From a virus, in UHGV virus genome UHGV-0179803: a DNA stretch of 64,000 bases. One strand, 5' to 3'. Made by a program: the position numbers and the translations under genes. Shown here in pieces: positions 2,342 through 26,323 of this stretch. The notes beneath the pieces were generated by a model that did not search any database, was not told the origin of the DNA, and was given only the letters and a program-made list of their open reading frames with translations. How positions within the stretch are numbered: position 1 is the stretch's first letter; each line of letters opens with the position of its first letter.

Positions 2342-5300
2342 ATGGCAGATGTGAAACTTGTCAGGATTGAGTCCTTGCCTGTAACCACAGAAGTCAACAA
2401 AGAAGAAGACTTTCTGATCGTTCAGCAACCAGACCTCACCCGCAGAACTTCAGTGAAAGATCTGATGGCAGGTGATCCGACTCTCTCCCACGTTGTTAAC
2501 TTCCATGACGGTGGCACCTTGAATGGTCCGATGGACTTCTGCTACTACGAGGAAGAAGATTTATACTTACGCTGGACAGGGGGATTCCCGCATACTGTAC
2601 CTTCATTATCAAGCCCATACGAAGATGGTGACATAACCGATGGTGCATGGGCAGTTTACACTGACCCGTCTTTACGTGACGAGTTAGGTTCCACAATCGG
2701 TGCTTCCCTGGTGTTGACTGAAGATGGTAGAACCATCCAGGATACTATGGATGAAGCTATTGATGCTGCTTTTGAAGCTGTACGTGTGCTGAATGGCCTG
2801 AGCTTTGAAAGAGTGACTGTTGTATCGGATGCTAACTACCTCGAAGGCTATGCAGGCCACATCGTAATGGATGAAAAAGCAACGGTTCATTTCCCTGACG
2901 TTGCAAGAGGTGAAGGCACCTTGAACGGTTTTGTATCGAAAGTTGTGGAAACAGACACTTCTAACGTGTACGAAGCTATTATGCAGGGTGGCACAACTGG
3001 GGCGATCTACACCATCCGTGTTTCTGAAGAAGAACACAAAGCGGTATGCCACAGACATGCATTGAAATCTGAATTGAGTCGTTATGACCAAACCAATCCG
3101 ACTCGCACAGTAATCAAAGCTGGCGATGATGCTAACGCATCCTACTTACAACTTGATGCAACTGGTCGTTGGGGTGTATGGAATCCTTCCATAACCAACT
3201 GGCAACCGTTAGCTATGGAACAAGGTGGTACAGGGGTTCGTGATGCTGCTACGTTCCGTCGTAACTTCGCAGTATTTCACAGATCTCATACTGCACTGGA
3301 AGCTGATTTCAATATCAATAACCTGAAAGGTAATGATGCTGGTGTTTACTATCAGCCTATGTCAGCTCTTGCTACTACTGCTAACGGTTATCCTTGCCAA
3401 CAGGCAGGTGTATTGATTGTATTACAGAACAATGCTAACGGAGGAGATGGTTGCCGTCAGGAATATCATCCGTTCAATACTGAGGATACCTACTATTCTC
3501 GCTGGTACAATGCGGGTGAAAAAACATGGCAAGCGTGGGTAACCTGGGCAAGACCCGTGAACACTAACAGCTTCCGTGAGCGGATAGGGATTGGTGCAGG
3601 TAACTCCCCTAGCTTTAGTAATCTGTATTTGAGAGCTGTAACAGACGACAAAGGTGCTTCTGGTATCCTGAATGGTACTAAATATAAAGCAGATGGTACG
3701 ACAGAAGAGCACGGTTTCCGTATTTACTCTGAAGTCCGCAAGGATAATAAAACTTGGTTAACCTTCCACCTGAAAACAGGTCCAGAAGGTAATCAACTTC
3801 ACAAATACCTCGGCTTAAGCGAAGATGGTAATTTTGAAGTTCCGAACAATATTGCTTGTAATACTTTCGCAGTACGTGATCTGAATACAACCCGTAATAC
3901 TTTACAGGTTAACAGATTTGTACAGGCAGGTTCTGAAACTGCCGTCAACAACCCAACAAACACTGCTAAACTGATCATCACAGAGGGTAAACTTTGGGGT
4001 GCTTACGATATTGCCAACAGTTCTTACATCCCGCTGGCAATAGGCCAGGGTGGTACAGGCGCAAGAGATGCAAATACAGCCTGGGCCAATCTAGGTGGTA
4101 AGGCTCTGGGTAAACTTGACAGCATTGCATTGACCGATAATAAGATCACTGGTGTGCTGCCTGTGTCTAAAGGTGGTACAGGTGCTACAAACGTTAACGG
4201 CATTAAGAGCAGCTTAGGTGTTAACCGTTTAGTCAACTCAAGTGCAGAACGCACCATTGTACAGTCTACGGATGTACAAGGTGACGGCTGCTATCTGCAA
4301 GTCGATAAAGGTGGTCAATGGGGCTGCTTCAACCCAGTAGCTGGTAACTGGCAGGCTTTATCTATTGCTCAAGGCGGTACTGGGGCCAAAGACGCAGCCA
4401 CTGCATGGACCAATTTAGGTGGTCGTGCACTAGGTAAAATGGATTCTATCGGCTTAACCGATGGTAAAATTACAGGTGTACTCCCAGTAAGCAAAGGTGG
4501 TACTGGTTGCGTATCTGATACGGAAGTTAAAGCATGGTTAGAACGCATAGGTATCTCCGGCGGCGGTGAAGGTGGTGGCAGTACAGGTACAGGCGGTTCT
4601 GCTGTAAACACGACACCTTTCGTAATTCAGAAACCTGATGGTGCGGAAGATGGTAAATATTACCCTGTCATTATTAATACATCTGAGGTAAACGCTTCAA
4701 TTGGTACAGACCTCCTTGTTAGTACCAGATCCTCGGTAGGCACTGATCCTATGAACTGTTCTACCTTGAGATGCTGGTATCGTACTGGCGGTTGGACAGA
4801 TAGAGGTGATTCTGCCTATGGTATGATCTCCTTCTACCAGAGTGAAGTGTCCATTTTAGGTTTGCTTGTTCCTACTCGTGGTCAGACAAACTATGCCGCT
4901 ATTTATGTGCATGAAAAAGCGTTCCCTATCTACGTTTATGCAAGTGCTGCGGTGACAGATGTTTGTGCCTATGCTGAAGACTTTGTAGCCAGTACTCCTA
5001 CAGATGGTCGAGATGGGGTTGTGTATAAAGCGGGTATTACAGATATCCACGAAGCAATTTTGGGTGATAATATAACCAACACTCGTCCACTTTTTGACTT
5101 TACTGGTGGTGTAAGCGGGTTCTACTGCAACCAATGGATGTACCGTGGCACCAAAGACAAATGGTTCTTGCAGAACAAAACAGAGATGGGTGAAACCGAA
5201 CTCTGGTATAATGGTCTGAAATACATCTGCCCAGGTAGCCAGACAGCCCGTAAAGCTCTGGAATCTAACGCAGGTTTCATGACGAAATCTGAGGGTACGG

Positions 5301-7012
5301 AAGATTTAATCAACGCCACGTTTACCTCTAAATGCGGTAACTTAGGTCAGGCTGAATTCCGTGCAACAAACAGTGCTGGTCAGATCATTGTTCGTGATAT
5401 GGCAGGTACTGCTCATAAATTCTGGAACTTTAATCCTGACGGCACTTTTAACTCACCTAGCGGTTTTGTTTGTCAGACAGGTGGTGACTGGAACAACCAG
5501 TTCGGGAACAATAACCCATGTAAAGTAATGGCTGGTAGCGCCAACGGGCCTGAAGGTTCGATGGTTGTCGGTGGGCTGTCTGTATCATTCTCTGGAAACT
5601 ATGCTTTCCAGATGGCTGGTCGCCTTGATCAGTTGTATACCAGATCCATTGAAGCTGGTAACCATAGAGCATGGAATAGGGTCTTAACTCACAAAGGTGT
5701 AGGACTTGACACTACAGACCTGGACGCTTATGATGGTACTCGTGAGGGTATTTACCACCAACAAAAAGATGCCGAATGTACATCTGGAAGGCATTACCCA
5801 GCACCATACGCTGGTACTCTAATTGTTTACCAGAACAATGCAAACAATACGAAAGGCTGCGTACAGGAGTACATCACACGTTTTGGTGACAGATATACTC
5901 GTGTTGGTAACATGGATAGAACTGGGTCCACTTTTATGTGGGAAGTTTGGCGGCATGATTCTGGTAAAGCTATCCAGCTACGCCCGAATCGTAATGTTGA
6001 TGAAACAGACAAAGAGTTGCTCATTCATGTTGGTGGTTCTGACAATCCCAGCAACAACACTAGCTTACCTGCTAATAACGCTAGACTGTTCTATTGGGGT
6101 AACGGTAATGATCGTAAGAACGTTCTGGAATTACAAATCGCAGGTACTGATGATGCCGAGCAGGGTATTTCTAATTGGGTATTCCATTGTGGTACTTTAG
6201 ATGATAACTTGCATAAATACTTCTCAGTAAACGGTAACATTAATGGTCAAACCATTACAGCAAGTAAGTTCATGACTACGGACGGTACTGACCTCGCTGC
6301 TGGAGCAGGTGTTCCAGTCGGTGTTCCGCTACCGTGGCCTACTGACACAGCACCTGACGGTTATGTTATCATGGCTGGGCAGGAATTTGATAAAGCTGCT
6401 TACCCCCAATTGGCTGCTGCGTATCCGAGTGGGGTTCTCCCTGACATGCGTGGTCAGACCATTAAAGGTAAACCAGCCACTGGTCGTACTGTTCTGTCAA
6501 CCGAAGCTGACGGTGTGAAATCCCACACCCACGGTGCAAGTTCCAACAGTGTGGATCTTGGTACTAAAACTACCTCTGGGTTTGACTATGGTAGTAAAGA
6601 CACCAGTGAGAGCGGTTGGCACGGTCACGGCCTCAGTGGTAGTGTTGCTTCTGGTGGTGCTCACCAACACGTAAGATCTGGTCCCCGCACGATAGGTAGT
6701 TTTGCTGACGATGTTTTTGCAGACGGGTATACTCTTGAAAGTGCAAACGCCTATGGTAAACTCACCCAGTATGGGTCAGGTACAGCTGCAACAAAAGTAG
6801 CCAAAACATCTAACGATGGTGCCCACAGTCACACCATGAGTGGTGCTTCTATCAGCGGAGCTGGGAATCACACCCACACAGTGGGTATTGGTTCACACAG
6901 CCATACGGTAGGTATTGGTGCTCACAGCCACACAATCACAGTTAATAGCACGGGTAACACGGAAAACACTGTTAAAAACGTGGCATTTAACTACATTGTG
7001 CGTTTAGCGTAA
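2342..7012 (+). CDS. Long tail fibre protein (1556 aa) with phage-fibre GGTG repeats and C-terminal His-x-His array
   Basis: RBS AGGAG upstream of ATG 2342. Repeated QGGTGA(R/K)DAxTAxxNLGG and KGGTG segments resemble the phage tail fibre repeat family. C-terminus carries [33 protein letters not shown], resembling the iron-coordinating HxH needle of T4 gp37-type fibres. Followed directly by a Tfa chaperone gene. Confidence 0.8.
4036..4520 (+). repeat. Internal tandem duplication within the long tail fibre gene (two ~55-aa units about 80% identical)
   Basis: Translated units [52 protein letters not shown] and [52 protein letters not shown]. Coordinates approximate. Confidence 0.6.
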
Positions 7013-7671: not shown

Positions 7672-9162
7672 ATGGCTAAATATGGTTTAACAGATGCTGG
7701 GTTTATATTGCCCACGCTCAACGACTTGATCGTTGAAACTAAGCAGAGCTTGATCAGGGCGTTTGGGGATGATTTCAACGTCCAGAGTAACTCGGTTGCT
7801 GACAAGCTCACCACAATTTTTAACGAACGTGAATACCAGTTAATCCTCATGATGGCTGCTGTATACGCCTCCCAGACACTGTATGGGGCAGAAGGCATCT
7901 ACCTTGATGAATTACTGGGCAGACAAGGTGTTTATCGTAGAGGGCGTACCAAGGCTTCTGGTCAGTGCCAGTTGACGATTAACAATACTGTCCCCTACAA
8001 CATGATTTACGACACAGAAACTTACAGCATTGATAGTGGTAACTTCAAACTTGCAAGTAATGTACAGGTAGCAGGCAACATAATTGCTCATAAGATAACA
8101 GCACCGGATCTCAGAATTGGTAAATACACATTCCAGATGACCAACCAGGTTGATGGCACTATCTTTACCAAAACCATGATTCTTACTGATAAGGCACTGG
8201 ATTCAACAGACCTTGTTAGTTTCTACGGCGAAATCAAGCAATTTATTGTTGACAACTCCACTCTTTTGAACGAAGATCTGATTCAGGTTGACATGACCAC
8301 AGGTACATTGTGGATCGGCTACGATGCTACCCTTGAGCGTGTGGGTCTGAACAGTAAAGTTGACTTTCGTGTATCTCCGATTGTGGGCGAACGCGCTGTA
8401 GTGATGGAAGTGATTGCTGCTGAAGCAGGTGCTCTGTCGCGTGAAGCAAATACGGTGACTACAATCTCCCCAACACCGAGTGGTTTCATCTCCCTCACTA
8501 ACAGAGAGATGTTTAACGAAGGTACTAATGTGGAGACTGATGCAGAGTATCGTCTAAGAGCTACAGGAACAAACGCTGTAACCTCTAAAGCTACTCGTCC
8601 GGCGATCCTGAGTGCAGTTCAAAATGTGGCAGGTGTAAGTAGGGTAAGGGTATTTGCCAACAATACAGACAAGACCAACAGCCTTGGCATCCCGCCCTAT
8701 AAATTCCAGGTGGTTGTATTTGGTGGTGCCACTGCTGACATTTGCCAGGCTCTGTATGATACGATTGCCTGTACGAACAGAACCTACGGCAACCTGTTCT
8801 ACGATATCAACACCTCAGATGGTCAGGTGGAGAGGATTTACTACTCCAAAGCAAGCACCTATCGTCTGGACATCAGGGTAACATATTCAGGGGCTGCACT
8901 TTCTGCTACTGAAAAAGAATCAATTATAAATGCCATGATGTCAGTTGTTAACGGTCTTGATATTGCAGACACTCTCTACAACATCCAGCTTGTAGGTGCT
9001 GCTTCTGCCGCTGTCAGTATTGGTCGTTTTAACAAACTGAACATTCATGTGAAACCGATTGGTGCTTCAGATGAGGCTTATACAGCTAATGACATTACAG
9101 CCGCTATGTCAGAGGTGTTTGACCTTGATGAAAACAACATCACATTCCAGCAAATCATTTAA
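7672..9162 (+). CDS. Baseplate J-like protein (P2 gpJ / T4 gp6 family)
   Basis: ATG 7672 preceded by GAGAGG. The ORF-track start at 7609 lies inside the promoter, so it was rejected. N-terminus MAKYGLTDAGFILPTLNDLIVE and internal DAEYRLRATG resemble P2 gpJ (..DYRLRI..). Confidence 0.6.
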   Translation: MAKYGLTDAGFILPTLNDLIVETKQSLIRAFGDDFNVQSNSVADKLTTIFNEREYQLILMMAAVYASQTLYGAEGIYLDELLGRQGVYRRGRTKASGQCQLTINNTVPYNMIYDTETYSIDSGNFKLASNVQVAGNIIAHKITAPDLRIGKYTFQMTNQVDGTIFTKTMILTDKALDSTDLVSFYGEIKQFIVDNSTLLNEDLIQVDMTTGTLWIGYDATLERVGLNSKVDFRVSPIVGERAVVMEVIAAEAGALSREANTVTTISPTPSGFISLTNREMFNEGTNVETDAEYRLRATGTNAVTSKATRPAILSAVQNVAGVSRVRVFANNTDKTNSLGIPPYKFQVVVFGGATADICQALYDTIACTNRTYGNLFYDINTSDGQVERIYYSKASTYRLDIRVTYSGAALSATEKESIINAMMSVVNGLDIADTLYNIQLVGAASAAVSIGRFNKLNIHVKPIGASDEAYTANDITAAMSEVFDLDENNITFQQII

Positions 9163-9171
9163 GGTGGAGTT

Positions 9172-9861
9172 ATGGCAGAGAAGAAAATAGATGTTAACCA
9201 CATTCACACTCTGCCAGATTTCGTTGAGGGGGGTCTTGATTACCTCCCCGGCGATTTTCTGAGAGAGAAAGAAGACCTGACAACATTCCTGTCTATCTAC
9301 CTTAAAAGGTTGCAGACTGTTGATGAGATGTTAGTTGCTCTTGCAGAAGGCCGTCTTCTTAACAATGCCAGCGGTAAATATCTTGATGAGATCGGTAATC
9401 AGCTTGGCATAAAAAGAAATGGCTTGCAAGATGCAGATTATCGTGCTACACTTATTATTCAGCAGGCATCTTTGTCCCGTGGTGGTACGCGTGAGGATGT
9501 AATTTCCACACTACAACAACTGTTGGGCAGAAACAATTTTGATACATGGGCTGGAGATAATTTCAGATTTGACATTAACGTCAGAAAAACCTGTTTCGAC
9601 ATTAGTCAGGCAATTGACCAGATCCTTGATATGCTACCACTGCCAACACATCTGAGATTGACAGAATCGCAGGGCAGGGCATTTGGTTTTGCCGGAGATG
9701 ATACTGCTGCGGGTTTCGGATCAATCTGGGACGATGCGCAGTTCGGAGTAGATGGTATTGCTACTCTGACTTATGTACCGGATGAACGACCTGATTGGGG
9801 TTCCACCACTGTTTGGTGTGAAAGTATTGTTGTTGACGCAACTATTGTTACGGAGGCTTAA
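9172..9861 (+). CDS. Baseplate/tail protein (P2 gpI-like position)
   Basis: Follows the baseplate J-like gene with tight spacing; RBS AAGGTGGAG. Function inferred from gene order only. Confidence 0.45.
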   Translation: MAEKKIDVNHIHTLPDFVEGGLDYLPGDFLREKEDLTTFLSIYLKRLQTVDEMLVALAEGRLLNNASGKYLDEIGNQLGIKRNGLQDADYRATLIIQQASLSRGGTREDVISTLQQLLGRNNFDTWAGDNFRFDINVRKTCFDISQAIDQILDMLPLPTHLRLTESQGRAFGFAGDDTAAGFGSIWDDAQFGVDGIATLTYVPDERPDWGSTTVWCESIVVDATIVTEA

Positions 9862-11939
9862 TGGCAACCGCTGTATTCAAAGCCTACAGGGATTACACCA
9901 CACTACAAGCAGAATTTATGTACAACACACTGGCAGATACAGCTGTGCCAGGGCGTGACTACACTCACGTCGAAGGTAAGGCGATCATTCCGGTGGATTC
10001 TGCCTCTATAGACATTCCTGTTGATATTGTGGATAAAAAACCTAACAGACTGCCTCGTAGCTTCTATATGCAGTTCCATACCCCCTCACAAGGGACGATG
10101 ATTGGGACCAAACAAGCAAAATGCACGATTACCTCCCAAGAAGATTTGAGCAGACTTGAATGGGGAACACAAGAAGAACGGATGTTCCACCCACGTTATT
10201 GGGTAACAAATTGCCAGCCGACTGAAAGTACGTCAATCAAGTCAGACAACTCCACTGTGATTGTCACGATGACTGCACGTACGATGGGGGGTATGTCTGG
10301 AGCAATCTGGGAAACAGTTGACACATACGACCACTTTGGTGTAGGATACGATGATCATTATGAAATGCGTAACACCAAACTGTGGTTCAGGGTCAAATTC
10401 ACCAATGCTCTTGACTTTACAACCCCAGGTCAGGCCACAATTACTGTCACACTTGTTGACGGTTCAATAATTTACGTCCGTATGTCAGACTATGCTTCTA
10501 ACATCTCGGATGATAAAACTACGGCAGATATTCATCTAAACTTTGAGGATTGTCTGGGTGTTGACCAGAATAACTATTTGATGGCAGTTGACCCCCGTCA
10601 GGTTCGTAAGATCCTGATCCCGTTAATGCCTAAGGACTATGTGGCTAACAGTACAGACGTTCGCACGACCAATGTTGACTGTGAACTTCGCATTGACATG
10701 TTGGAGCCGGACACTGGTTGGAAATATATGCAGCTTAATGATTTGACTGTTGAAGGTCACGATTTAAGAGCTTGCACTGCATATGATGATATGTGGAATG
10801 TTTCTCCGGCGCGTGTTCTTTATAACCTTCAGAAACTTGGCTACCGTGGTAGAATCAACCACTATTGCGGAATGAGCCATTATTATAATTACACATGGAG
10901 CAACGCAACCCATAAATGGGAGATCGATAAATCAGGGACTCTGAACAAAGCTGCCAAAGCGTGGCATGAGGATTTTGCTTATAATCTGACTCGCTACGGA
11001 TTCACAGATGCAATGTTCTCTATCAGCATGGAGCTTTACAGCGATGCCTGTCCTCTGGAATGGACCCAACGTGAATGGGACGATAGCTACGCTAAGACAG
11101 GGTATACACCTTGCAGCTACCTGTTATCACCTTGTATCGAAGAAGGTATGACATTCTTATTGAACGTCTTTAAAAACTTCGCTCAGATTTTAAAAACTCA
11201 AAGCCTGCCTGTTATTATGCAGATTGGCGAACCGTGGTGGTGGTACAATACAGACTCCCGCAGACCTTGTATCTATGACTACACCACAAAAGAGATGTTC
11301 TATGATGAAACAGGGGAGTATGCACTTGACATAGGCACTATCGACAACCCATTAACTGGTGGTGTTTATGACAGATACATCGCATTCTGTCGCGACAAAT
11401 TTGGTCAGAGAATTGCAACACTCGCTACTGGCATCAAGGCAGCATTCCCTGGTGCTCAAGTTACAGTTCTTGTCTTCTACCCCACCATTGTTGGTACACT
11501 GATGGAAGAACTTAACCTGCCAGACCAGTACAAGAAAGAGTCAGGAGTACTTGACTTCTTCTGTTCAGAATGCTATGATTGGGTTATGAATGGGGAAATA
11601 GAACATTCATTTGAAGCTATTGAGCACCCTCGCAAAACCTTAGGTTGGAACAGGAACGAAATCCATTACCTCGCAGGGTTTGTACCTGGTAAAGATTTAG
11701 CTCCAGTGTATGGCTATGACCCAGAGAAGAACTATCAGGAATTTTTGTGGAGAGTGATCTGCGGTAACATCTGTACTACTGAGTATCATTACCCAGAGGT
11801 ACAGCAGTACGTATGGGCTTATCCGCAACTTATGAATGATAGTATCACATTCAGTGCGAAAGAGTCAACTGTTGTTCACATGGGGCAGACAGCCCTTAAA
11901 AGCTACACAGAAGATGTGACACCACCAGACCTTTCATAA
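9861..11939 (+). CDS. Structural protein (692 aa), probable baseplate or fibre-proximal component
   Basis: Start overlaps the upstream stop (TAATG), indicating translational coupling within the structural operon. No diagnostic motifs. Confidence 0.55.
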   Translation: MATAVFKAYRDYTTLQAEFMYNTLADTAVPGRDYTHVEGKAIIPVDSASIDIPVDIVDKKPNRLPRSFYMQFHTPSQGTMIGTKQAKCTITSQEDLSRLEWGTQEERMFHPRYWVTNCQPTESTSIKSDNSTVIVTMTARTMGGMSGAIWETVDTYDHFGVGYDDHYEMRNTKLWFRVKFTNALDFTTPGQATITVTLVDGSIIYVRMSDYASNISDDKTTADIHLNFEDCLGVDQNNYLMAVDPRQVRKILIPLMPKDYVANSTDVRTTNVDCELRIDMLEPDTGWKYMQLNDLTVEGHDLRACTAYDDMWNVSPARVLYNLQKLGYRGRINHYCGMSHYYNYTWSNATHKWEIDKSGTLNKAAKAWHEDFAYNLTRYGFTDAMFSISMELYSDACPLEWTQREWDDSYAKTGYTPCSYLLSPCIEEGMTFLLNVFKNFAQILKTQSLPVIMQIGEPWWWYNTDSRRPCIYDYTTKEMFYDETGEYALDIGTIDNPLTGGVYDRYIAFCRDKFGQRIATLATGIKAAFPGAQVTVLVFYPTIVGTLMEELNLPDQYKKESGVLDFFCSECYDWVMNGEIEHSFEAIEHPRKTLGWNRNEIHYLAGFVPGKDLAPVYGYDPEKNYQEFLWRVICGNICTTEYHYPEVQQYVWAYPQLMNDSITFSAKESTVVHMGQTALKSYTEDVTPPDLS

Positions 11940-17231: not shown

Positions 17232-17278
17232 TTAATTAGCCTCTCCTGCGGGAGAGGCTTTACTGTTTGGAGAACACA

Positions 17279-20200
17279 ATGCTTCCAATTCCTCTGTTAA
17301 AACTTGCTAATTTCCATCTGGACTCGAAGGATGGGATCAAGGAACTTGCTGTTCTGTCCTACCCAATAGATAAAAGTGATGGTACTAGCAGCACAGTATC
17401 TTATGTAAACAGTCTTGCAATTCTTTATGCAGATGGTTTGCTCGTTCTGACAGGCGCTAACAAGTATGGCGAATGTGGAACAGGTAATCGCAACGAATGC
17501 ATTTACCCGAACGAGTCGATCCGCAACATCGATCATGTCTGGAGAGCAGATCGTTCTTTCGTGGTTGAAACTTTTGATCATGAATTCTTTTACATCGGCT
17601 GCACAGCGGGTCTTATTGGCTCCACAGCGGCTGGTGGTAACGATGTTTGTGTAACCCAGTGGACTGCACTACCTTCACAAATTACGACCACTCTGGGGCT
17701 TGATAAGCACCCAGAACGCTTGCTTGAAGTTTGCGGTGGGATGAACAACACTTGCTGGGTAATTGGTGCACCTGAAGGTGAAGGTATCTGGGATATCTAC
17801 GGTTCAGGCAACAACACCTACGGTTCTTTGCATGTGGATAAAAACCAACATGCCAACCCTGTTAAAATTGCTGAAACTTCTCAGGATCCTGTAACAGGGC
17901 AGTGGAAAAACCCAGCACTAAATCTGGAGGTCCACGATAACTCTGTGATCTATGGTGGCCCAGATGGCTACTGGATTGCTGGTTACGATTTCCTGCGCAA
18001 TAATAGTGAGCTTAATCTGGTTTATCCACCAGAACACGGGACATGGGCAGCTTTGACAGGCAGCAGTGAAACCTACAAATGGTTCATGTGTGGTCCGAAT
18101 GGGGCTGTAGTTGCTACAGAGCGTAATCACACAGATGGTATACCTGTGTATGTATTCCGTGGACAGAATTCCTGGGGTGATAAAACCTGGCGCCCATTGA
18201 ACCTCACCTATACCCATGAAGTGATTATTGCACAAGGTCATGCTACTAACGGCATCTTCTTTAATAACGGTACAAAACAGTACAGAGGTTTCTCTCGTAA
18301 CCTGTGTAACGATATTGGCTGGTCGTCTGCTGAAGCCAACCCTCGTGCACAGTTCCAGCACAAGCAGGCAATTGCTACAGCTGCATACGTCGAACAACGT
18401 ACACCTGTTAGTTGGGCTGAGAACGTATACTTCCAGGGCATCAACCGGGAAGGTTACTTGGGCACACTAACTGTGGTAAACGGTAAACTTTGGTGGTCCG
18501 GTATTCCTCGTGGCAGCTTCCCAGGAAGCAACAACCTGTTTGGAGGCCAACTCAATTCTCAAGGTTTTACACAGGTAGACCCGAACTGGATTAAGAACGT
18601 TCCAGTATCCAGTTTTGAGGTTGAAGAAGTTATTAGAGTCAACGGTTGGGGGACTGAGCGCCCTGTCAGTAACATTTATATTGGGGATACTGTTCAGCTC
18701 AGAATTAAAGCTCTACCAAGAGGTGCTACATGGTTTGTAGACAAAGTTGAGATCACAAATGCAGCACAAACTGTTGTAAGCGATCCTCTGTATACTGCAA
18801 CCATTAACCACAACGTGTTTGGTGTATGGGATAGTATTGTTACCCAACAGAATAAAAACGTTGATCGTCGTGGACTGTACCATGTTAAAATCACCTACCA
18901 TGATAAAAATGGTACTCACACACATCTAACCAGAAACATCAACTGGAACACGATTGTACCTGTGATCCCTTCGGATAGTACATGGTACACTCAAGGTCTG
19001 AGCCGCTCTTTGTCTTTGGGCAGCACAACCTATTTGGGTCTGGATACTGCACAACCTGCAACTGAAAATGCTGACGCTTTTAAAATCAGATTACACAGGA
19101 AAGATGCAGGCTCTGTGACCTATGATGTGACACAAGAACTTTACAACCAACGCCGTGAAATGTATAACTTCCTGGTCACTCATCAGGCACTGTGGGAATA
19201 CAACCCGAACGGTGCTGGTGGTAAAATGTATCAGGCCAACGAACAGAACGGGACTTCTCTGAACATCCACTCAGATAAAAACCCGTGGGCTACGCCTGAA
19301 AGACCTCCTAGCTGGGCACGTACTCTGAAAGTTGTCAGCTACGACGCAGGTTTCTTTGGTTTGCGTTGGGAATCAACAATTGAATACTATGATGGTACTC
19401 ACCAGAACATCGGGTTAACCCTTGGTGGGGATTCTGCCAGCACTTCACGTAAGATTGTCCGTACGCCACGCGGTGTGGATATCTCTGTTGATCTTGTTAA
19501 GAACAGTTATGGGGATATTCAGGCGCATGTAACACCTGCTGAGGCTGCGAATAATATATCTTATAATATTGCGGCATTCAAAGAGGATCCTCGCGTTGTT
19601 GGTGCGCACGATGCCGACTGGTATTACACCATTACACCCACTGCTGATACTACCAACTTCATGTTAGGTATGAAACGTGACATGCAGAAAAAACTAGGTG
19701 TTACTGACCTGTGCTACGTTTGCATTAAAGATACCCGTGTTAAAGATACGGATCCTGAAGCAAAATGGTTTACCGTTGACCCGAATACCATACGTAGTGA
19801 TAAGTTTGTTAACGAATATATCCTGTGCGCTGGCGGTACTAACCTGAACTTGTTCTGGAGTGAAAACGCTGATAAATATTGTAGTTATGATTACTTACGT
19901 GATTATTGCTGTAACCAGTGGTTTACCAACGGCAACGGCTATGTGCCTCGCCAATGCCAGACACTGCCAGCCATCTTCACAGATAACCAGACATTTTTGC
20001 TGAAACAGGCTAATGAAGTTCAGGTTGATAAAAACGGGTATGATGGAACCAAATGGTTCTTTAACTGCTATGCTCAGTATTATTGGGGTCCTGGGGAGCT
20101 TCTCAGTGATGCAGGTTGCAATCTGATGGATAAAGAAATAGGCTCATGGACTCATATGAACCAAACCTGCAACTTTATTCCACAGAACGCAACATCTGAG

Positions 20201-23086
20201 GGGTCTTCAGTTCTGGATGCTTACATCAGGATTGAAAAAGTTCACGATCCACGCGGCGATCAACCTGCCACTACTATGGCAGTACCAATGACGGCGGGAT
20301 TCCAGCAAGTAAAACTGGTTGTTAGTTGTGATCAGATAGGTAAAAATGTACCTACAGGTAATGTTGAAGGCATCGCACCTTACGTTATTGATTGCTACTA
20401 CAATATTAATAGCTTGGGGTATAAAGAGGCTCAGAAAATCACCAGCACTGATACATCAAAATGCAGACGCATTCTGTTAGGTGCGGGTTGGTGGCTATAT
20501 GAGTTTGACTTCAGCACAGTTGCGGATTGGGCAACTGACAGTGGGAACACATTGAGCGGTATTCGTTTCGACTTTGGTCAAAATATGCTACCAGAGGCTA
20601 TTAACGGTGACTATGGTGACCCTGTTGTTCATGTCAAACAGGTAATGCTGGAGAAAACTGATCAATCAGAGGTTTATGGTAAGCAACTCCAATTGATCAA
20701 AGATTGGTATGAAGCTGAAACTTCCCGTATCTCTAAAACCCGAGGGGTAGTTCTGGATGCTGGCACAGAGGATATGTTGGTTAATACTGTGTGGCCTAAT
20801 CTGGATGATACTCCTCTTGAAAACGCTGCACGTTCTATTAACTGGTTCAACTTCCACAGAGCTATGTGGTCAGTTAACATCTTTATCTGGAAGCTGTTTA
20901 ATGACAGAACCGAATCCTTTGGTTCTGGTCTACGTGTGGCTCCGATCTGTTGGACCTCTTTGATGCGTTGCTATGACAACCAATGGGAGATTGGTGGTCG
21001 CGAGTGGCAGAATATGAGGACAAGGGTTTATTCTCAGTTTGCAGTTAAACCTGTAAACTCCTATAACTCTGGTACTTCTCGTATTCTGTTCCAGGAAGGT
21101 TCAGAGTCCTATAAAGTGGAAGGTTACAGTGGGTCAATGATTGAATGGGGTACTAAACTTCTTGCCCGTGAAACTCTTGCAAAAGAGATTTGTCAGGCAA
21201 TAGGCGGGGACCTTATTCAAAAACAGATTCCTCGTTGGTTCACCTTACCGTGCTGGAATAAAACCTCAGCTAACACGTATGTAAATACGAACGCAGATGG
21301 AGATTTGTTCCTGTACTTTGAAGATATGTCACAGTACACAAACTGGACACCTGGTAACATTCATTTACAGGTATGGAACAGCGAAGGTTCTCTGGTTTAC
21401 ACCACAACCAACACTGCAAATACCAACTTCTGTGCGATCCCGAAAGCAAGATTGGAACAATATTTCGGTACAGCACGCCCTGATCCGGTCACACTATCTA
21501 TGATGGTTTATGACCAAACTTCTGGTGCTTTTGGTCCAAGGGTTGCACAGGTATATCAGAACATTGAGTATATAAAACGGATCCAGCATATGGATGTTAG
21601 AACAGGATGTGAACTGTCTCCAGACAGTAATAAGAAATGGTGGGGTATGCCTAACACTAGTTGGATTGCGGATGAGTATATATTGATTTACCCGAAAAAA
21701 GCCCTGGATGGTGCAATAATTACTGCAAACTCTGCTTACAGCAACCTTGCTGAGTTTGTAGTAAGAAAAGACCTTGCATACACCTATCCGACACCGGGTG
21801 ATGGTACAATACCTGGCGCAGACGCTACACTTGGTGCATGGTGTGTCCCTGTCGAAGTTCACTGGACTGACGAGACAGGCCAGCAATCTGCGGGTACTGT
21901 CTTGACAGCTATAGTAGAGGCTTCTGATGAAACTGGTACTCTAAGAGATAACATGGTAGGCCCTTACACTAAAGGTGCCCTGGCAATATCCCCGAGGGTA
22001 ACGGCGAAAACAGGTGGCGTATCCATATATGGATTCAGCAACTCTGATAGTTGGGCTTTAATGGATAATAGACACACATGGGCCGCTGGTTCAAGCGTGA
22101 CCTATGAGTTCTTGCTGAAAGGCTTCTATTCACCGACGAATGCTTATCAGGAACGTGGTACTTATCCTTATACCCAGTCTGGTACGCAGAAAGGCTTCTA
22201 TGTTACGGACAACTATATACCTGGTGGTGCAGCAAGCCTGGATTTCGAGGTCACCTCAAGCGACCCGACAGTCTTCGTTGCTACGAAACTAACTGACCGT
22301 AAATTCGCTATCAATGCTGTGAAAAATGGTTCAGCGGTTATCACAATTACAGCTACAGTTTCTTACGGCGAAGGTTCTTATACCTTCAGTAAACTCTATA
22401 ACTGGAAATGCGGTTCCGGCACCGTGATTACAGGATTGAGCGATCTGCCTAACCCGTTCAATGGGATTGGTATCAAAGGCGGCGGTGGTGTTATGCGTAA
22501 ACCAACTCTGCAACCTAGCGGCGCAGTCCCTGCTTCAGAGTCCTGGTCAACGAATAACCCAGATGCCGTTACGATCACACCCGATACAGGTCAGGTTAAA
22601 TTTGTTGAGGTAGGTACAGCTGTTATCACATACTCCTGTACTGACATTTATGGTGCAGTCTTCACGAAGACGACCACAATTGCGGTTAAAGAGCTTCACC
22701 CGCAATACAGGGCATGGGTAGGTAACCCAACTGACGGAGCTTATCCACAACCTTATGGTACAAGCCTTATGGAGTCGTTCTCGACTCAACCGTGTAACTA
22801 TCAGACATTGGTAAGTTACCCTATGAGAGTTTTTGGTGGTATGTATATCCCAGAGCTTAAAGGTGTACCAGCAGGCCAGCTAACGATTTACACAGGTGAC
22901 CCAGCAAGATTAGCCAACTTCGGTTATTCTTCTCCTACGGTTGCATTGAGTGAGTCAGGTTGGTGTGGTTATGAACTCAATTGGGACCACATGGAAAACG
23001 GTAAAACTTATATGGAATTTGCTGTGGCTGTGCAGGGAATCTCCCAGAACGCTTGCCGTGCGGGATTTAATATCAGGGAAGCGTAA
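17279..23086 (+). CDS. Very large structural protein (about 1935 aa) with two C-terminal Big_2-type Ig-like domains
   Basis: ATG 17279 after GGAG. C-terminal segments ..VTSSDPTVFVATKLTDRKFAINAVKNGSAVITITATV.. and ..NNPDAVTITPDTGQVKFVEVGTAVITYSCTD.. fit the bacterial Ig-like group 2 pattern. Confidence 0.7.
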   Translation: MLPIPLLKLANFHLDSKDGIKELAVLSYPIDKSDGTSSTVSYVNSLAILYADGLLVLTGANKYGECGTGNRNECIYPNESIRNIDHVWRADRSFVVETFDHEFFYIGCTAGLIGSTAAGGNDVCVTQWTALPSQITTTLGLDKHPERLLEVCGGMNNTCWVIGAPEGEGIWDIYGSGNNTYGSLHVDKNQHANPVKIAETSQDPVTGQWKNPALNLEVHDNSVIYGGPDGYWIAGYDFLRNNSELNLVYPPEHGTWAALTGSSETYKWFMCGPNGAVVATERNHTDGIPVYVFRGQNSWGDKTWRPLNLTYTHEVIIAQGHATNGIFFNNGTKQYRGFSRNLCNDIGWSSAEANPRAQFQHKQAIATAAYVEQRTPVSWAENVYFQGINREGYLGTLTVVNGKLWWSGIPRGSFPGSNNLFGGQLNSQGFTQVDPNWIKNVPVSSFEVEEVIRVNGWGTERPVSNIYIGDTVQLRIKALPRGATWFVDKVEITNAAQTVVSDPLYTATINHNVFGVWDSIVTQQNKNVDRRGLYHVKITYHDKNGTHTHLTRNINWNTIVPVIPSDSTWYTQGLSRSLSLGSTTYLGLDTAQPATENADAFKIRLHRKDAGSVTYDVTQELYNQRREMYNFLVTHQALWEYNPNGAGGKMYQANEQNGTSLNIHSDKNPWATPERPPSWARTLKVVSYDAGFFGLRWESTIEYYDGTHQNIGLTLGGDSASTSRKIVRTPRGVDISVDLVKNSYGDIQAHVTPAEAANNISYNIAAFKEDPRVVGAHDADWYYTITPTADTTNFMLGMKRDMQKKLGVTDLCYVCIKDTRVKDTDPEAKWFTVDPNTIRSDKFVNEYILCAGGTNLNLFWSENADKYCSYDYLRDYCCNQWFTNGNGYVPRQCQTLPAIFTDNQTFLLKQANEVQVDKNGYDGTKWFFNCYAQYYWGPGELLSDAGCNLMDKEIGSWTHMNQTCNFIPQNATSEGSSVLDAYIRIEKVHDPRGDQPATTMAVPMTAGFQQVKLVVSCDQIGKNVPTGNVEGIAPYVIDCYYNINSLGYKEAQKITSTDTSKCRRILLGAGWWLYEFDFSTVADWATDSGNTLSGIRFDFGQNMLPEAINGDYGDPVVHVKQVMLEKTDQSEVYGKQLQLIKDWYEAETSRISKTRGVVLDAGTEDMLVNTVWPNLDDTPLENAARSINWFNFHRAMWSVNIFIWKLFNDRTESFGSGLRVAPICWTSLMRCYDNQWEIGGREWQNMRTRVYSQFAVKPVNSYNSGTSRILFQEGSESYKVEGYSGSMIEWGTKLLARETLAKEICQAIGGDLIQKQIPRWFTLPCWNKTSANTYVNTNADGDLFLYFEDMSQYTNWTPGNIHLQVWNSEGSLVYTTTNTANTNFCAIPKARLEQYFGTARPDPVTLSMMVYDQTSGAFGPRVAQVYQNIEYIKRIQHMDVRTGCELSPDSNKKWWGMPNTSWIADEYILIYPKKALDGAIITANSAYSNLAEFVVRKDLAYTYPTPGDGTIPGADATLGAWCVPVEVHWTDETGQQSAGTVLTAIVEASDETGTLRDNMVGPYTKGALAISPRVTAKTGGVSIYGFSNSDSWALMDNRHTWAAGSSVTYEFLLKGFYSPTNAYQERGTYPYTQSGTQKGFYVTDNYIPGGAASLDFEVTSSDPTVFVATKLTDRKFAINAVKNGSAVITITATVSYGEGSYTFSKLYNWKCGSGTVITGLSDLPNPFNGIGIKGGGGVMRKPTLQPSGAVPASESWSTNNPDAVTITPDTGQVKFVEVGTAVITYSCTDIYGAVFTKTTTIAVKELHPQYRAWVGNPTDGAYPQPYGTSLMESFSTQPCNYQTLVSYPMRVFGGMYIPELKGVPAGQLTIYTGDPARLANFGYSSPTVALSESGWCGYELNWDHMENGKTYMEFAVAVQGISQNACRAGFNIREA

Positions 23087-23313: not shown

Positions 23314-23499
23314 TCAGTGTGTGATGTTGAAAATATCTGCCCGGAGCGTTATAATTTTAGCTTTTAACAGCTCCAGACACCCGATCTGCTGTTGAATGTC
23401 CAGATAGTCTGCTACAATTGCTGCAATGAGCACGAACATAACACACAGTGCAACAAGCGCGATGACATAAGGATCATCTGAAAGATAACGTTTACTCAT
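23314..23499 (-). CDS. Small membrane protein (61 aa)
   Basis: ATG with AGGAGAG RBS. Transmembrane segment VIALVALCVMFVLIAAIVA. Confidence 0.4.
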   Translation of the reverse strand: MSKRYLSDDPYVIALVALCVMFVLIAAIVADYLDIQQQIGCLELLKAKIITLRADIFNITH

Positions 23500-23686: not shown

Positions 23687-23953
23687 TTATTTTTGATTAT
23701 CTCTATTCTGCTCCACTTTAACCACTGTTGCATGGAGCCATTCACCAGGTTCTGTCAGCTGCATACTGTTTGCTTTGAAGCTGTTCATCTTTTCTGGAAT
23801 GCATTGCATGTTGTCGCCGACGTTAAGGCCAGAGACAATTTCACCATTGCGTGGCAGCATGTGATCAAGGTTCCACCGGATACCTGTTTCTCTCCTGCGG
23901 ATCCTGCACAAGCGTTTGATCTCTTTCTCTACAAACTTGTCCCACTCTGTCAT
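23687..23953 (-). CDS. Small HNH-type endonuclease-like protein
   Basis: RBS GAGGAGG before ATG (MTEWDKF..). Motif ..WNLDHMLPRNGEIVSG..NVGDNMQCIPEKMN fits the His-Me finger pattern (DH..P..G..N..C..N). Confidence 0.45.
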   Translation of the reverse strand: MTEWDKFVEKEIKRLCRIRRRETGIRWNLDHMLPRNGEIVSGLNVGDNMQCIPEKMNSFKANSMQLTEPGEWLHATVVKVEQNRDNQK

Positions 23954-23969
23954 GATGAACCTCCTCAGA

Positions 23970-23997
23970 TACAAGAAAGGCCACCCGAAGGTGGCCT
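23970..23997 (-). terminator. Terminator hairpin (GGCCACC-CGAA-GGTGGCC) with U-rich tail on the minus strand
   Basis: Lies just downstream of the 24013 stop of the minus-strand YadA-like gene. Confidence 0.5.
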
Positions 23998-24012: not shown

Positions 24013-25584
24013 TTACCAGCCGATTGCAGCACCTGCACCCCAGACAACTTCTTCATTATTAGCAGCAACACTTGCTTTAACAGTTAAGTTGTCGTTGACA
24101 CGAGCACTTGCACCTACTGCGATAGCTTGCTGACCATCAAAACCACCAACACCAACACCTACACTGAAAGTTTGATGGCTGTTGACTTCAGGAATGTTAG
24201 CCATTGCAGCCACACCAGCGATACCCGCAGCAGCACGTTTGCGGTTAGCATCTACAGTGTTTTTCAGGTCACTGAAGTTTTTATTCAGTTTCTGAATTTC
24301 ATGGCTGTTACGGTTAATGGCCTGACGGTTAGCTTCGATGTTTTTACGGTTGTCGTAAATGCCAGCATATGCACCATCAATGCGTTCTTCGTTGCGTTGG
24401 ATGCGGATGCTGTTGTTAGCTACATCACGAGACACTACTTTCACATCGTTCTTAACATTGTTGACACCAGCTACTGCTTTATCTGCCGTGTTCTGTGCTT
24501 TATCAGCTTTAGCACTTGCAGTGTTTGCAGTATCCTGAGCATTCACCACAGCATTGTTTAGTGCGCCGTTTTGATTTTTCAGATCAGCAATGTCGTTTTT
24601 GTTTGTAGTGACTTGCTTGTTAGTATCTGCCAAATCTTCTTTCACAGCATCAATCTGGTTGCGATTTTCAATAGCTCCAGCTAATGCGCCATCTGCTTTG
24701 ATAGCCACATCTTCCAGAGCAGCTTTGTCAGCCTTATTTTCGTTCAGGTTGGTTAATTGTTCATCCTGTACAGCATTTTCACGTAGAGCTGTTTCTGCTG
24801 CGTTTAAAGCATTATTGGCTTTACTGTCAGTAACAGCAAGGTCAGTTTTATCTGCTTTTACCTGTTCTAACCGTCCAAGTTCTGCATCTTGTGCTACATT
24901 CTGGCTAAGAGCTTGATCTGCTTTTGCACCTGCATCAATGGCTAAATTTTTTGCCTGATCTGCATCTCGGATACCAGTTTCTGCTTTGCTGATGGCATCG
25001 TTAGCTTTTGCGTCAACAACTACTAAATCAGTTTTATCAGCCTTAGTGTTAACCAGTTGATCAACTTTAGCATTAGTTTTCTCAAGTTCTTCTTGCGTGT
25101 AGCTTACAGCCCCATGAAGAATTTGTTGTTCTACCTCGACCCTATTCAGGTGGTTACTGTTGTTGTTAATCTGATCCTGCATACCATCCATACGATCATT
25201 TTGTTTCTGTTGGTCTTTCAGGAAATCATTTTTGTCAACTTTATTGCCAACCCGATCTTTCAGTTCATCAACATCACGACCAATGTTGCTAACTTGCTGA
25301 TCTAGTCCGTTAATGTCAGCACTCAAATCGCCAATTTGTTGGTCATGCTTATTAAGGTGGTCATAGATACCAGAGGCATCAAAACTACTACCAGTCTGGA
25401 TTTGATCAATACGGTTATGCACATCAGAGAACTTGTCGTTCATATCGTGGCGCAGTTCATCCAACTGCCAGTTCTTTGTAGAAGCGTCAGGGTTCTCAGG
25501 ATTACCACTTGCAGCCAGGGCGGCACCAGAGAACAGAGCAGCGGCAATTGCAGTAGTGATGATAGCTTTATTCATATGTTTCAT
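24013..25584 (-). CDS. Trimeric autotransporter adhesin-like outer-membrane protein (signal peptide, long coiled-coil stalk, YadA-type C-terminal anchor)
   Basis: N-terminus MKHMNKAIITTAIAAALFSGAALAASG is a signal peptide. About 400 aa of Asn/Asp/Lys/Gln-rich heptad stalk. C-terminus ..AAAGIAGVAAMANIPEVNSHQTFSVGVGVGGFDGQQAIAVGASARVNDNLTVKASVAANNEEVVWGAGAAIGW matches the YadA anchor consensus, ending in Trp. Confidence 0.8.
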   Translation of the reverse strand: MKHMNKAIITTAIAAALFSGAALAASGNPENPDASTKNWQLDELRHDMNDKFSDVHNRIDQIQTGSSFDASGIYDHLNKHDQQIGDLSADINGLDQQVSNIGRDVDELKDRVGNKVDKNDFLKDQQKQNDRMDGMQDQINNNSNHLNRVEVEQQILHGAVSYTQEELEKTNAKVDQLVNTKADKTDLVVVDAKANDAISKAETGIRDADQAKNLAIDAGAKADQALSQNVAQDAELGRLEQVKADKTDLAVTDSKANNALNAAETALRENAVQDEQLTNLNENKADKAALEDVAIKADGALAGAIENRNQIDAVKEDLADTNKQVTTNKNDIADLKNQNGALNNAVVNAQDTANTASAKADKAQNTADKAVAGVNNVKNDVKVVSRDVANNSIRIQRNEERIDGAYAGIYDNRKNIEANRQAINRNSHEIQKLNKNFSDLKNTVDANRKRAAAGIAGVAAMANIPEVNSHQTFSVGVGVGGFDGQQAIAVGASARVNDNLTVKASVAANNEEVVWGAGAAIGW

Positions 25585-26079
25585 AGTTAAGCGCACCTCA
25601 GTCAGTTAATCTGCATCTCGTTTCGATGAAGTAAATATACCAAAATTGGAGCATCATGTCAACAACTATTTTATGGCGACATGCAAAAGACACCACAAAA
25701 TAGGGTGACACACACCACTATAGCCAGTATGACCAACCATACATCCAAAGGTTTCATAATCAGTAATCAGACCTCACTGGAAAGTTGAGATAATGCTTAA
25801 GAGCAGGATTAAGACACCACCGATCACAGTGTACAGGAAAAGCCCACCTGCGGCATCGACCAGTTCTTGTACAAAGTGGTTTTCAAATTGCTTATCACGC
25901 AACCGAAAGAACAAATCTATTAACTTTTTCATAGGCTTACATCAGAAATAAGAAAGTGTATAATAACATTTCCAACCCAGTGGCAGCATATACCATGAGC
26001 AATATAGCAATAGCTGCCATGAGAACATCATCTTTTGTCATAACAGGCATCCTCATTCTATGCACCTCTCTTGATAAAT

Positions 26080-26155
26080 TGGCGGCCCCTACTGGACTTG
26101 AACCAGCAACCAAGCGATTATGAGTCACCCGCTCTACCTGTTGAGCTAAAGGGCC
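26080..26155 (-). tRNA. tRNA with anticodon CAU (Met elongator/initiator, or Ile2 if lysidine-modified)
   Basis: Hand-folded cloverleaf: acceptor GGCCCUU/AGGGGCC, D-stem GCUC/GAGC, anticodon loop CUCAUAA, T-arm GGUUCAAGUCC, encoded CCA end. Confidence 0.7.
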
Positions 26156-26156
26156 G

Positions 26157-26232
26157 TGGTGCTGATGGAGGGACTCGAACCCACAACCTTTTGATTACAA
26201 ATCAATTGCACTACCGTTTGTGCTACATCAGC
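26157..26232 (-). tRNA. tRNA-Thr (anticodon UGU), tentative
   Basis: Acceptor GCUGAUG/CAUCAGC, discriminator A, encoded CCA, anticodon loop UUUGUAA, T-loop UUCGAGU. One mismatch each in the anticodon and T stems, so identity needs confirmation. Confidence 0.55.
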
Positions 26233-26248
26233 AAACTGCTTATGATAG

Positions 26249-26323
26249 TGGTATTCGGAGCGGGAGTCGAACCCGCATCTACAGCTTAGGAGGCCGCTAT
26301 TCTATCCGTTGAACTATCCGAAC
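26249..26323 (-). tRNA. tRNA-Arg (anticodon CCU, reads AGG)
   Basis: Acceptor GUUCGGA/UCCGAAU, anticodon loop CUCCUAA, perfect T-arm GCGGG-UUCGACU-CCCGC, encoded CCA. Confidence 0.65.

Follow-up and report, generated by a model that had tools for sequence, protein, structure and literature searches.

The gene at positions 24013..25584 (minus strand, stop codon included) of the UHGV virus genome UHGV-0179803 very probably encodes a type Vc trimeric autotransporter (TAA) that lacks a head domain. The whole 64,000-nucleotide stretch of this genome that we analyzed is referred to as the window. Reading from the N-terminus, the predicted 523-residue protein consists of a Sec-type signal peptide, a tip that is short and conserved, a coiled coil of ∼425 residues and, as the fourth part, a C-terminal YadA_anchor domain. 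We tentatively favor a reading in which this protein forms a type Vc surface rod that excludes superinfecting phages and protects progeny. This would mean, if display occurs as predicted, that a strictly lytic phage uses the host Sec pathway and β-barrel assembly machinery (BAM) to put a long surface rod on a dying cell.

The C-terminal membrane anchor

The preliminary description of this locus, made from the letters alone, recognized a YadA-type C-terminal anchor ending in Trp, and profile and structure comparisons bear this out. Residues 465–523 (24016..24192, minus strand) match the Pfam family PF03895 (YadA_anchor) over the entire model (positions 1–60 of 60) with 65.5 bits and E = 4.7e-18, well above the gathering cut-off of 22.7 bits. 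All remaining Pfam matches of the protein are sub-threshold coiled-coil noise. A sequence search of the PDB returned the YadA anchor (2LME, E = 3.8e-7) and also the AtaA transmembrane domain.

The AlphaFold2 (AF2) model of the last 120 residues, built with 63 diverse homologs, has a pLDDT of 84 and consists of a helix (2–59 in the numbering of the model) followed by four β-strands (70–79, 82–92, 97–105 and 110–118). When this model was compared with the PDB using Foldseek, the only structures matched at E ≤ 0.001 were those of Hia (2GR7, 3EMO and 2GR8), AtaA (9VNJ) and YadA (2LME), with target-normalized TM-scores of 0.69–0.85 and root-mean-square deviations of 1.6–2.4 Å. The chain ends in ...GAGAAIGW, and the terminal Trp is present in 93 of 94 homologs.

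Signal peptide, tip and coiled-coil stalk

At the opposite end of the protein, sequence reading and a hydropathy scan located the three regions of the Sec signal peptide that had been proposed. Residues 1–24 (25513..25584, minus strand; MKHMNKAIITTAIAAALFSGAALA) comprise a basic n-region (MKHMNK), an 18-residue hydrophobic core and an A-x-A site (ALA|AS), with cleavage predicted before AS. The feature is conserved in the family; by a crude heuristic, 88 of 94 homologs have a signal-peptide-like N-terminus. The distal tip that follows, residues 25–63 (25395..25512, minus strand; SGNPENPDASTKNWQLDELR...NRIDQIQ), is likewise conserved in the family alignment. Its first ∼13 residues are non-helical, and the AF2 pLDDT is <50 across residues 1–37.

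The stalk, residues 38–462 (24199..25473, minus strand), was delimited by AF2 helix and heptad assignment. In the full-length AF2 monomer, which we used for secondary structure only and not for fold searches, residues 38–462 are helical apart from short interruptions at 64–70, 116–117, 179–184 and 282–286, and four β-strands follow. The heptad register is unbroken over residues 282–462 and continues into the anchor; upstream of 282 it is broken six times. Pfam and NCBIfam searches returned only the anchor and coiled-coil noise; no YadA head, stalk or neck, no HIM and no further passenger family was among the matches. Searches with PADLOC and NCBIfam gave coiled-coil noise (SMC, Rad50, JetC and LmuB) together with sub-threshold BimA anchor matches, and a search within the window found neither a paralog of the protein nor a fiber-derived similarity to its stalk. 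A heptad stalk of ∼400 residues without a head had been described previously: the helical extent and the lack of a head family stand, but the stalk is not one uniform heptad run.

The a and d positions of the stalk core are occupied by Ala, Val, Ile, Leu or Asn, with 10 Asn residues at d. Six Asn residues (N391, N398, N412, N419, N426 and N447) and two RxD motifs (R58-I-D and R401-I-D) show little or no variation across the family alignment. Layers of Asn at d and RxD clamps are hallmarks of TAA trimeric stalks. Both features occur in the near-invariant membrane-proximal segment, residues 377–426 (24307..24456, minus strand; VKNDVKVVSRDVANNSIRIQRNEERIDGAYAGIYDNRKNIEANRQAIN), and the middle of the stalk (approximately residues 120–290) is cassette-variable. 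When fully extended, a 425-residue stalk would have a computed length of ∼63 nm.

The phage protein resembles YadA, Hia and AtaA in its signal peptide, its coiled-coil passenger, its PF03895 anchor of four strands and its terminal aromatic residue. It differs from these type Vc proteins in lacking a head, a neck or any named passenger domain, and in being encoded by a virulent-type phage. Apart from the optional head, every TAA characteristic that can be read from sequence or from a monomer model is found in the predicted protein. NadA, UspA2 and DsrA are coiled-coil-dominated TAAs with minimal heads that bind host-animal ligands. As in these proteins, the passenger is nearly all coiled coil, so that any activity would come from the stalk and tip, with no β-roll head involved. 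However, we detected no sequence relationship between them and the phage protein, and a phage has no obvious use for animal ligands.

Transcription and translation signals

The coding sequence is a single long open reading frame (ORF) that can be read as 24013..25596 (minus strand) from a GTG or as 24013..25584 (minus strand) from an ATG. The ATG at 25584, which yields the 523-residue product, is most likely the better start because it is preceded, at a distance of 9 nt, by a Shine-Dalgarno sequence identified by reading (GAGGTG; 25594..25599, minus strand), within which the GTG at 25596 falls. Upstream of both is a σ70-type promoter (25634..25662, minus strand) composed of TTGACA, a 17-nt spacer and TATATT with an extended −10 TG, which agrees with the σ70 consensus at 11 of 12 positions. 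Sites with at least 11 of 12 matches occur 20 times in the window, compared with 1.07 ± 0.85 times in dinucleotide shuffles, corresponding to ∼19-fold enrichment, and four of the 20 are perfect (12/12). The sites lie on the minus strand between 23531 and 30151 and on the plus strand between 33513 and 62775. These promoters are co-oriented with the non-structural genes, and none serves the tail operon at 0.2–23.1 kb. It appears from this distribution that the non-structural genes of the phage rely heavily on unmodified host RNA polymerase.

Directly 3′ of the stop codon is a GC-rich intrinsic-terminator hairpin (23978..23997, minus strand) with the sequence AGGCCACC-TTCG-GGTGGCCT, followed by a T-run. 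The hairpin is kept in the related loci L001 and L002, in the latter with a compensatory G-C to A-T change, and it confirms the suggestion that the gene has its own terminator. The moron-like layout noted at the outset also holds: the promoter, of σ70 type, and the terminator are the gene's own, and the gene is absent from the equivalent block of the Vequintavirus AlexBoehm. Since the tail operon has no such promoters, we read the TAA gene as a predicted self-contained unit for host RNA polymerase, unlike the structural genes. This arrangement would point to early expression. The gene is not, as had been stated, alone on the minus strand; it is the third from last in a leftward block of early-type genes, ∼9 kb in length (∼32.6 to 23.3 kb), that also carries three tRNAs and small ORFs and lies outside the tail operon.

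These observations bear on the possibility that the TAA is a structural fiber of the virion, as is implied where databases use the names 'tail protein', 'tail fiber protein' and 'receptor binding protein'. PHROG places the family in its 'tail' category and RefSeq calls several homologs tail protein. A 'YadA domain-containing structural protein', moreover, is a cyanophage virion protein encoded near tail-fiber genes and has been detected in virions (PMC9146016). A Sec signal peptide, however, would take the protein out of the cytoplasm, which is where virions are assembled, and the anchor is a membrane β-structure that is hydrophobic on its outside. The gene also lies outside the tail operon (183–23086), on the opposite strand and behind a σ70 promoter. 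We consider a virion role highly improbable because of the export signal, the non-structural location and the host-polymerase promoter, which is absent from the tail operon genes.

The cyanophage and pelagiphage proteins have only a name in common with the TAA. The pelagiphage case is a fiber domain matched to a head-type structure, 3S6L (PMC3909814), and the 'YadA domain-containing protein' of P-HM2 (L010, 20298–21899) lacks PF03895 and has no Pfam match at E ≤ 0.01. The widely copied YadA annotation of the P-HM2 protein is unsupported by current models. A literature search found no report of virion detection for an anchor-bearing homolog. Both 'tail protein' and 'receptor binding protein' are probably wrong and appear to stem from the name 'adhesin' being passed on.

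Conservation and mosaicism of the close family

A large protein database contains 33 close homologs of the TAA (E < 1e-100, 49–91% identity, 357–565 residues), nearly all from assemblies with contigs of 135–148 kb that represent Vequintavirus-like phages. Beyond this phage lineage, identity drops to 35–56% and is mostly confined to the C-terminal part. The closest chromosomal homolog, in Lelliottia, has no obvious prophage around it, and recent capture of the gene from a prophage, which we considered, is unsupported.

In the family alignment the signal peptide and tip are conserved, the mid-stalk varies by cassettes and residues 377–426 are near-invariant; the anchor exists as two alleles, ending in ...AAIGW or ...VGIAW. 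We estimated selection by segment using crude pairwise Nei-Gojobori comparisons. Most of these segment comparisons show purifying selection, with a ratio of non-synonymous to synonymous divergence (ω) of 0.0–0.6. The strongest constraint is on residues 377–426 (ω 0.00–0.30, with synonymous divergence, dS, of up to 0.8) and within each anchor allele; both regions show many synonymous and almost no non-synonymous changes. These crude estimates gave no sign of positive selection on the gene, and two tip comparisons with ω ∼1 rest on too few sites. The dS values differ greatly between segments of the same pair, which is a sign of recombination.

The tip is exchangeable as well because L012 (3017–4363) and the database proteins P0027 and P0028 join a different N-terminal tip (signal peptide ...SPAMA, then GQFDNVVYPEGSFEQKV...) to the same stalk base and anchor. 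At L011 (3158–4363) the reading frame is split into ORFs of 111 and 257 residues, which would be a natural pseudogene unless it results from faulty sequencing or assembly.

The gene or its cassette is present at L007–L009, L011 and L012 but not in AlexBoehm. L007–L009 have the layout of the window: a DUF2201 protein gene, small genes, a tRNA gap, the TAA gene, an 88-residue ORF, small genes and a convergent giant fiber gene. L011 and L012, both from IMG/VR, have flanks 89–93% identical to the window and no tRNAs. In L001 and L002 the TAA gene occurs, together with a tRNA and the HNH-like gene described below, in another neighborhood (DNA ligase, RNase T and PAPS reductase).

A proposed surface rod for exclusion or for adhesion

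In the sequence of events that we infer, host σ70 RNA polymerase would transcribe the TAA gene from its own promoter, early and as a non-structural gene. The precursor would be exported by Sec and cleaved after Ala24, and BAM would insert the C-terminal 60-residue anchor, three copies of which would form a 12-strand barrel. The three passenger chains would then thread out and zip into a ∼60 nm rod that displays the conserved tip on the infected cell. A dense lawn of such rods could keep other virions off outer-membrane receptors, which would amount to adsorption-level superinfection exclusion, and on post-lysis debris the same lawn could protect progeny from re-adsorption.

Exclusion is an assignment of function that we make with considerable doubt. 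We favor it because the protein has no adhesive head, because the strongest constraint falls on the membrane-proximal stalk and anchor, because stalk length is free to vary and because the gene, like llp and cor, abuts a receptor-binding gene, in this case the lateral-fiber gene, within what is in relatives a variable island of predicted exported proteins and lipoproteins. Close relatives carry at the same spot further predicted exported proteins and lipoproteins and a secreted DUF5384 protein. A parallel comes from Kuravirus, Schitoviridae and the jumbo phage GAP32, unrelated virulent phages that carry anchor proteins outside their structural modules.

Llp of T5 and Cor of T1, φ80 and N15 are small outer-membrane lipoproteins that are encoded beside receptor-binding genes, bind a single receptor, FhuA, block adsorption or DNA entry and shield progeny from debris. 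The TAA would be like them by functional analogy and in position, with its spot abutting the 3′ end of the giant lateral tail-fiber gene. It is unlike them in having no homology to either and another mode of anchoring, and exclusion is proven for Llp and Cor but would be a prediction for the TAA. If true, this would be an adsorption-level exclusion class distinct from the small lipoprotein blockers, and a rod displayed as predicted would add a structural class to the phage outer-membrane proteins Llp, Cor, Lom, Bor and Eib.

Several considerations weigh against a rod that acts in exclusion. Nothing in the sequence points to exclusion specifically rather than adhesion, TAAs are classically adhesins and autoagglutinins, and the conserved tip would suit binding better than a purely steric role. 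The full-length AF2 monomer has a low pLDDT of 58, although a low value is expected for an obligate trimer. A σ70-type promoter alone does not prove early timing. Unless the split frame at L011 is an assembly error, the gene appears to be dispensable at least sometimes. Finally, our literature search for experimental studies of any virulent-phage YadA-anchor protein returned only genome-annotation remarks.

The main rival, favored by a tip that is both conserved and exchangeable, is that the rod serves aggregation or adhesion. It would stick infected cells to their neighbors, to each other or to surfaces, such that progeny are freed near new hosts or a favorable niche is kept. YadA, Saa, UpaG and EibG are adhesins and autoagglutinins (PMC7247748; PMC3728262). 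The tip is conserved across most of the family and total length varies from 357 to 565 residues, as if the tip binds and the stalk projects it, and the different N-terminal tip of L012 suggests exchangeable specificity. We nevertheless consider this rival rather unlikely: the protein has no recognizable adhesive head domain, only ∼13 residues of the tip are non-helical, and a benefit of aggregation inside a single lytic cycle is speculative.

The rod could instead have another envelope function, either as a shield against colicins, contact-dependent inhibition, type VI attack or conjugation, or in destabilizing the outer membrane at lysis. This idea, to which we give a small probability, draws on the host-polymerase promoter of the gene and on its surroundings, a variable island predicted to encode exported proteins, lipoproteins and small membrane proteins. 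A lysis role fits poorly with a protein that is not spanin-like and has neither a lipobox nor an overlapping inner-membrane partner.

Still less probable, in our view, is a conversion factor of the Eib or Bor type that was inherited from temperate elements and benefits the host through serum resistance, immunoglobulin binding or tissue adherence. The eib genes are prophage-borne, on lambdoid prophages. The Eib proteins of E. coli and the phage TAA are alike in being phage-encoded accessory TAAs with their own expression signals. The Eib proteins, however, carry heads and necks of the YadA type, belong to temperate phages, are made in the lysogen and benefit the bacterium, conferring serum resistance and immunoglobulin binding via their stalks (PMC7247748). 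Moreno Switt et al. listed yadA homologs of virulent phages as putative virulence genes in 2013 (PMC3728262), and we found a 101.5-kb Salmonella element with a YadA-anchor gene beside porin and Acb2-like genes. Unlike Eib, the phage TAA would have only a single lytic cycle in which to act: its phage seems to be strictly virulent, and a host that dies within the cycle leaves little time for a payoff. Its similarity to Eib is confined to anchor-level matches, with none to the Eib passengers.

The downstream HNH-like gene

The TAA gene is followed by a gene for an 88-residue HNH-like protein (23687..23953, minus strand) with a DH...N...N motif. The protein has no Pfam match; the longer 95-residue ORF at 23687–23974 gives weak PHROG matches to endonuclease VII/HNH families (E = 6e-7 to 6e-8). 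In each of the eight loci examined (the window, L001, L002, L007–L009, L011 and L012), the HNH-like gene comes after the TAA gene. Its product is ∼95% identical across six aligned loci, while the TAA genes are 49–91% identical and mosaic. It is plausible that the HNH-like gene is a homing-type element that drives exchange of the adjacent TAA gene.

Carried further, this linkage would make the TAA a functionless passenger of a selfish cassette, copied along with a homing endonuclease. The constant association and contrasting divergence of the two genes would be explained in this way, as would the occurrence of the tRNA-TAA-HNH unit in two different genome contexts and the possible disruption of the TAA gene at L011. 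A passenger without function would not, however, be expected to show purifying selection on most segments or to conserve its signal peptide, its Asn residues at d and its terminal Trp. Independent acquisition of such genes by many unrelated phage lineages also argues for utility, and we rate the passenger explanation as marginally less probable even than a benefit to the host.

YadA-anchor genes in other virulent phages

By tblastn we found anchor-level matches in 70 deposited phage genomes, with 38–57% identity over the last 105–175 residues. They include φEco32 and other Kuravirus, FSL SP-058/076 and TR2 (both Schitoviridae), SKML-39, Hena1 and Aeromonas phages, as well as the jumbo phages GAP32, fHe-Yen9-04 and Munch. 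Annotated YadA-anchor adhesins are also known from the jumbo phage 7t3 and from φR1-RT and TG1. The genes found by tblastn are variously labeled adhesin, agglutinating adhesin, YadA-like protein, tail protein or receptor binding protein. IMG/VR contributes 63 YadA-anchor loci, and BFVD contains 20 viral cluster representatives of the same fold, several of which are already named 'Trimeric autotransporter adhesin YadA-like C-terminal membrane anchor domain-containing protein'.

The annotated adhesins of virulent phages such as φEco32, TR2 and GAP32 resemble the TAA in combining a signal peptide, a variable passenger and PF03895 and in being encoded in non-structural regions, sometimes, as in the window, beside tRNAs and σ70 promoters. 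In MN03, TR2 and GAP32 the anchor genes lie among small non-structural genes, and in GAP32 the gene is 3′ of a tRNA and an annotated σ70 promoter. Both full-length proteins examined, those of TR2 and GAP32, have signal peptides. The passengers differ: TR2 has collagen repeats, GAP32 has another N-terminal domain, and φR1-RT and TG1 have almost none.

We also considered a general linkage of phage TAA genes to tRNA clusters. Such a rule does not hold because only 9 of 60 IMG/VR loci (jumbo, SKML-39-like, Hena1 and φEco32) show the linkage and the closest relatives, L011 and L012, have no tRNAs.

YadA-anchor genes as a class in virulent phages are not new because they are already annotated in many such phages and have been in print since 2013. 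In T4-like phages of Serratia, Chen et al. (2017) noted an ORF with a YadA anchor that lies within a dispensable region (PMC5449768). Within this recognized set, the TAA represents a divergent head-less family: only its anchor aligns to deposited phage proteins, and no full-length relative of the 33-member family was found among deposited phages.

The value of the analysis is therefore mainly corrective, in that the class is known from annotation and its labels are probably wrong, and the interest lies in the biology of the whole YadA-anchor class in virulent phages. Should the TAA be displayed as predicted, dozens of phage genomes would gain a testable function for genes that now carry the mistaken labels 'tail protein', 'receptor binding protein' or 'virulence factor'. 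Therapy candidates are among these phages, and for them an annotation as 'adhesin' is a safety concern. A wider proposal, which we regard as doubtful, is that many virulent-phage lineages rebuild the infected-cell surface with early trimeric autotransporters that act as a ∼60 nm picket fence or as glue. Stalk length, tip and anchor would be shuffled between co-infecting phages, possibly via a linked HNH gene, and the proteins would make up a general class for exclusion, progeny protection or aggregation.

In the region 8001–11767 of the 101.5-kb Salmonella contig (L075) mentioned above, the YadA-anchor gene is followed, ∼0.8 kb downstream, by a Porin_1 gene and an Acb2/Tad1-hairpin (anti-defense sponge) gene. 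With DNA methylase and resolvase genes in its surroundings, the contig looks like a phage or phage-plasmid with several outer-membrane remodeling genes.

Genomic context and neighboring genes

The window is part of a large enterobacterial myovirus. The tail, baseplate and multi-fiber operon (183–23086, plus strand) ends with a gene for a 1939-residue lateral fiber, and the region from 33 to 63 kb (plus strand) encodes an ATPase, rIIA/rIIB, helicases, primase and DNA polymerase. Vequintavirus polymerases share 74% identity with the one encoded here, and the order of modules is that of phage AlexBoehm. The phage looks strictly virulent because of this polymerase, the presence of rIIA/rIIB and the lack of an integrase in the window.

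Three tRNA genes, tRNA-Arg(CCT), tRNA-Thr(TGT) and tRNA-Met(CAT), lie upstream of the TAA gene at 26080..26323 (minus strand) and have their own promoter (26377–26348). Small envelope-directed genes form a variable island that is bordered by the tRNAs on one side and by the 3′ end of the giant fiber gene on the other. In the window it holds a 61-residue ORF (23314–23499, minus strand) and very short hydrophobic ORFs at 25669–25755 and 25774–25932 (both minus strand). Relatives have putative lipoproteins with LTGC or LCGC lipoboxes at this location (L011, 4879–5487; L012, 5486–6004; L009, 8049–9603). Neither the small genes of the island nor the putative lipoproteins of the relatives gave an informative family match.

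DUF5384 genes are found near the TAA gene in three of the relatives (L001, 4256–4813; L009, 9686–10246; L012, 6060–6647), and the window has no DUF5384 homolog. The DUF5384 protein has a signal peptide, is helical and charged, and ends in Trp or Arg. In the database protein P0032, the TAA stalk is fused at approximately residue 421 to the C-terminal part of the DUF5384 protein; this fusion may be a recombinant or an assembly chimera.

At the DNA level, the TAA locus and 25 kb of the window match no deposited phage except for an 870-bp tail-fiber stretch of JEP1. This match (82%) lies at 5204–6070 within a 1556-residue fiber gene and is the only such stretch in the first 25 kb. The phage has no close relative with an annotated genome among those deposited. 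The 1939-residue lateral tail fiber (17267–23086, plus strand) has RCC1-like and Ig-like matches. In AlexBoehm it corresponds to the 'lateral tail fiber protein with intimin domain'. The DNA polymerase gene of the window (47476–50262, plus strand) is uninterrupted; in several Vequintavirus relatives the tblastn match to it is split by an HNH/homing-endonuclease insertion.

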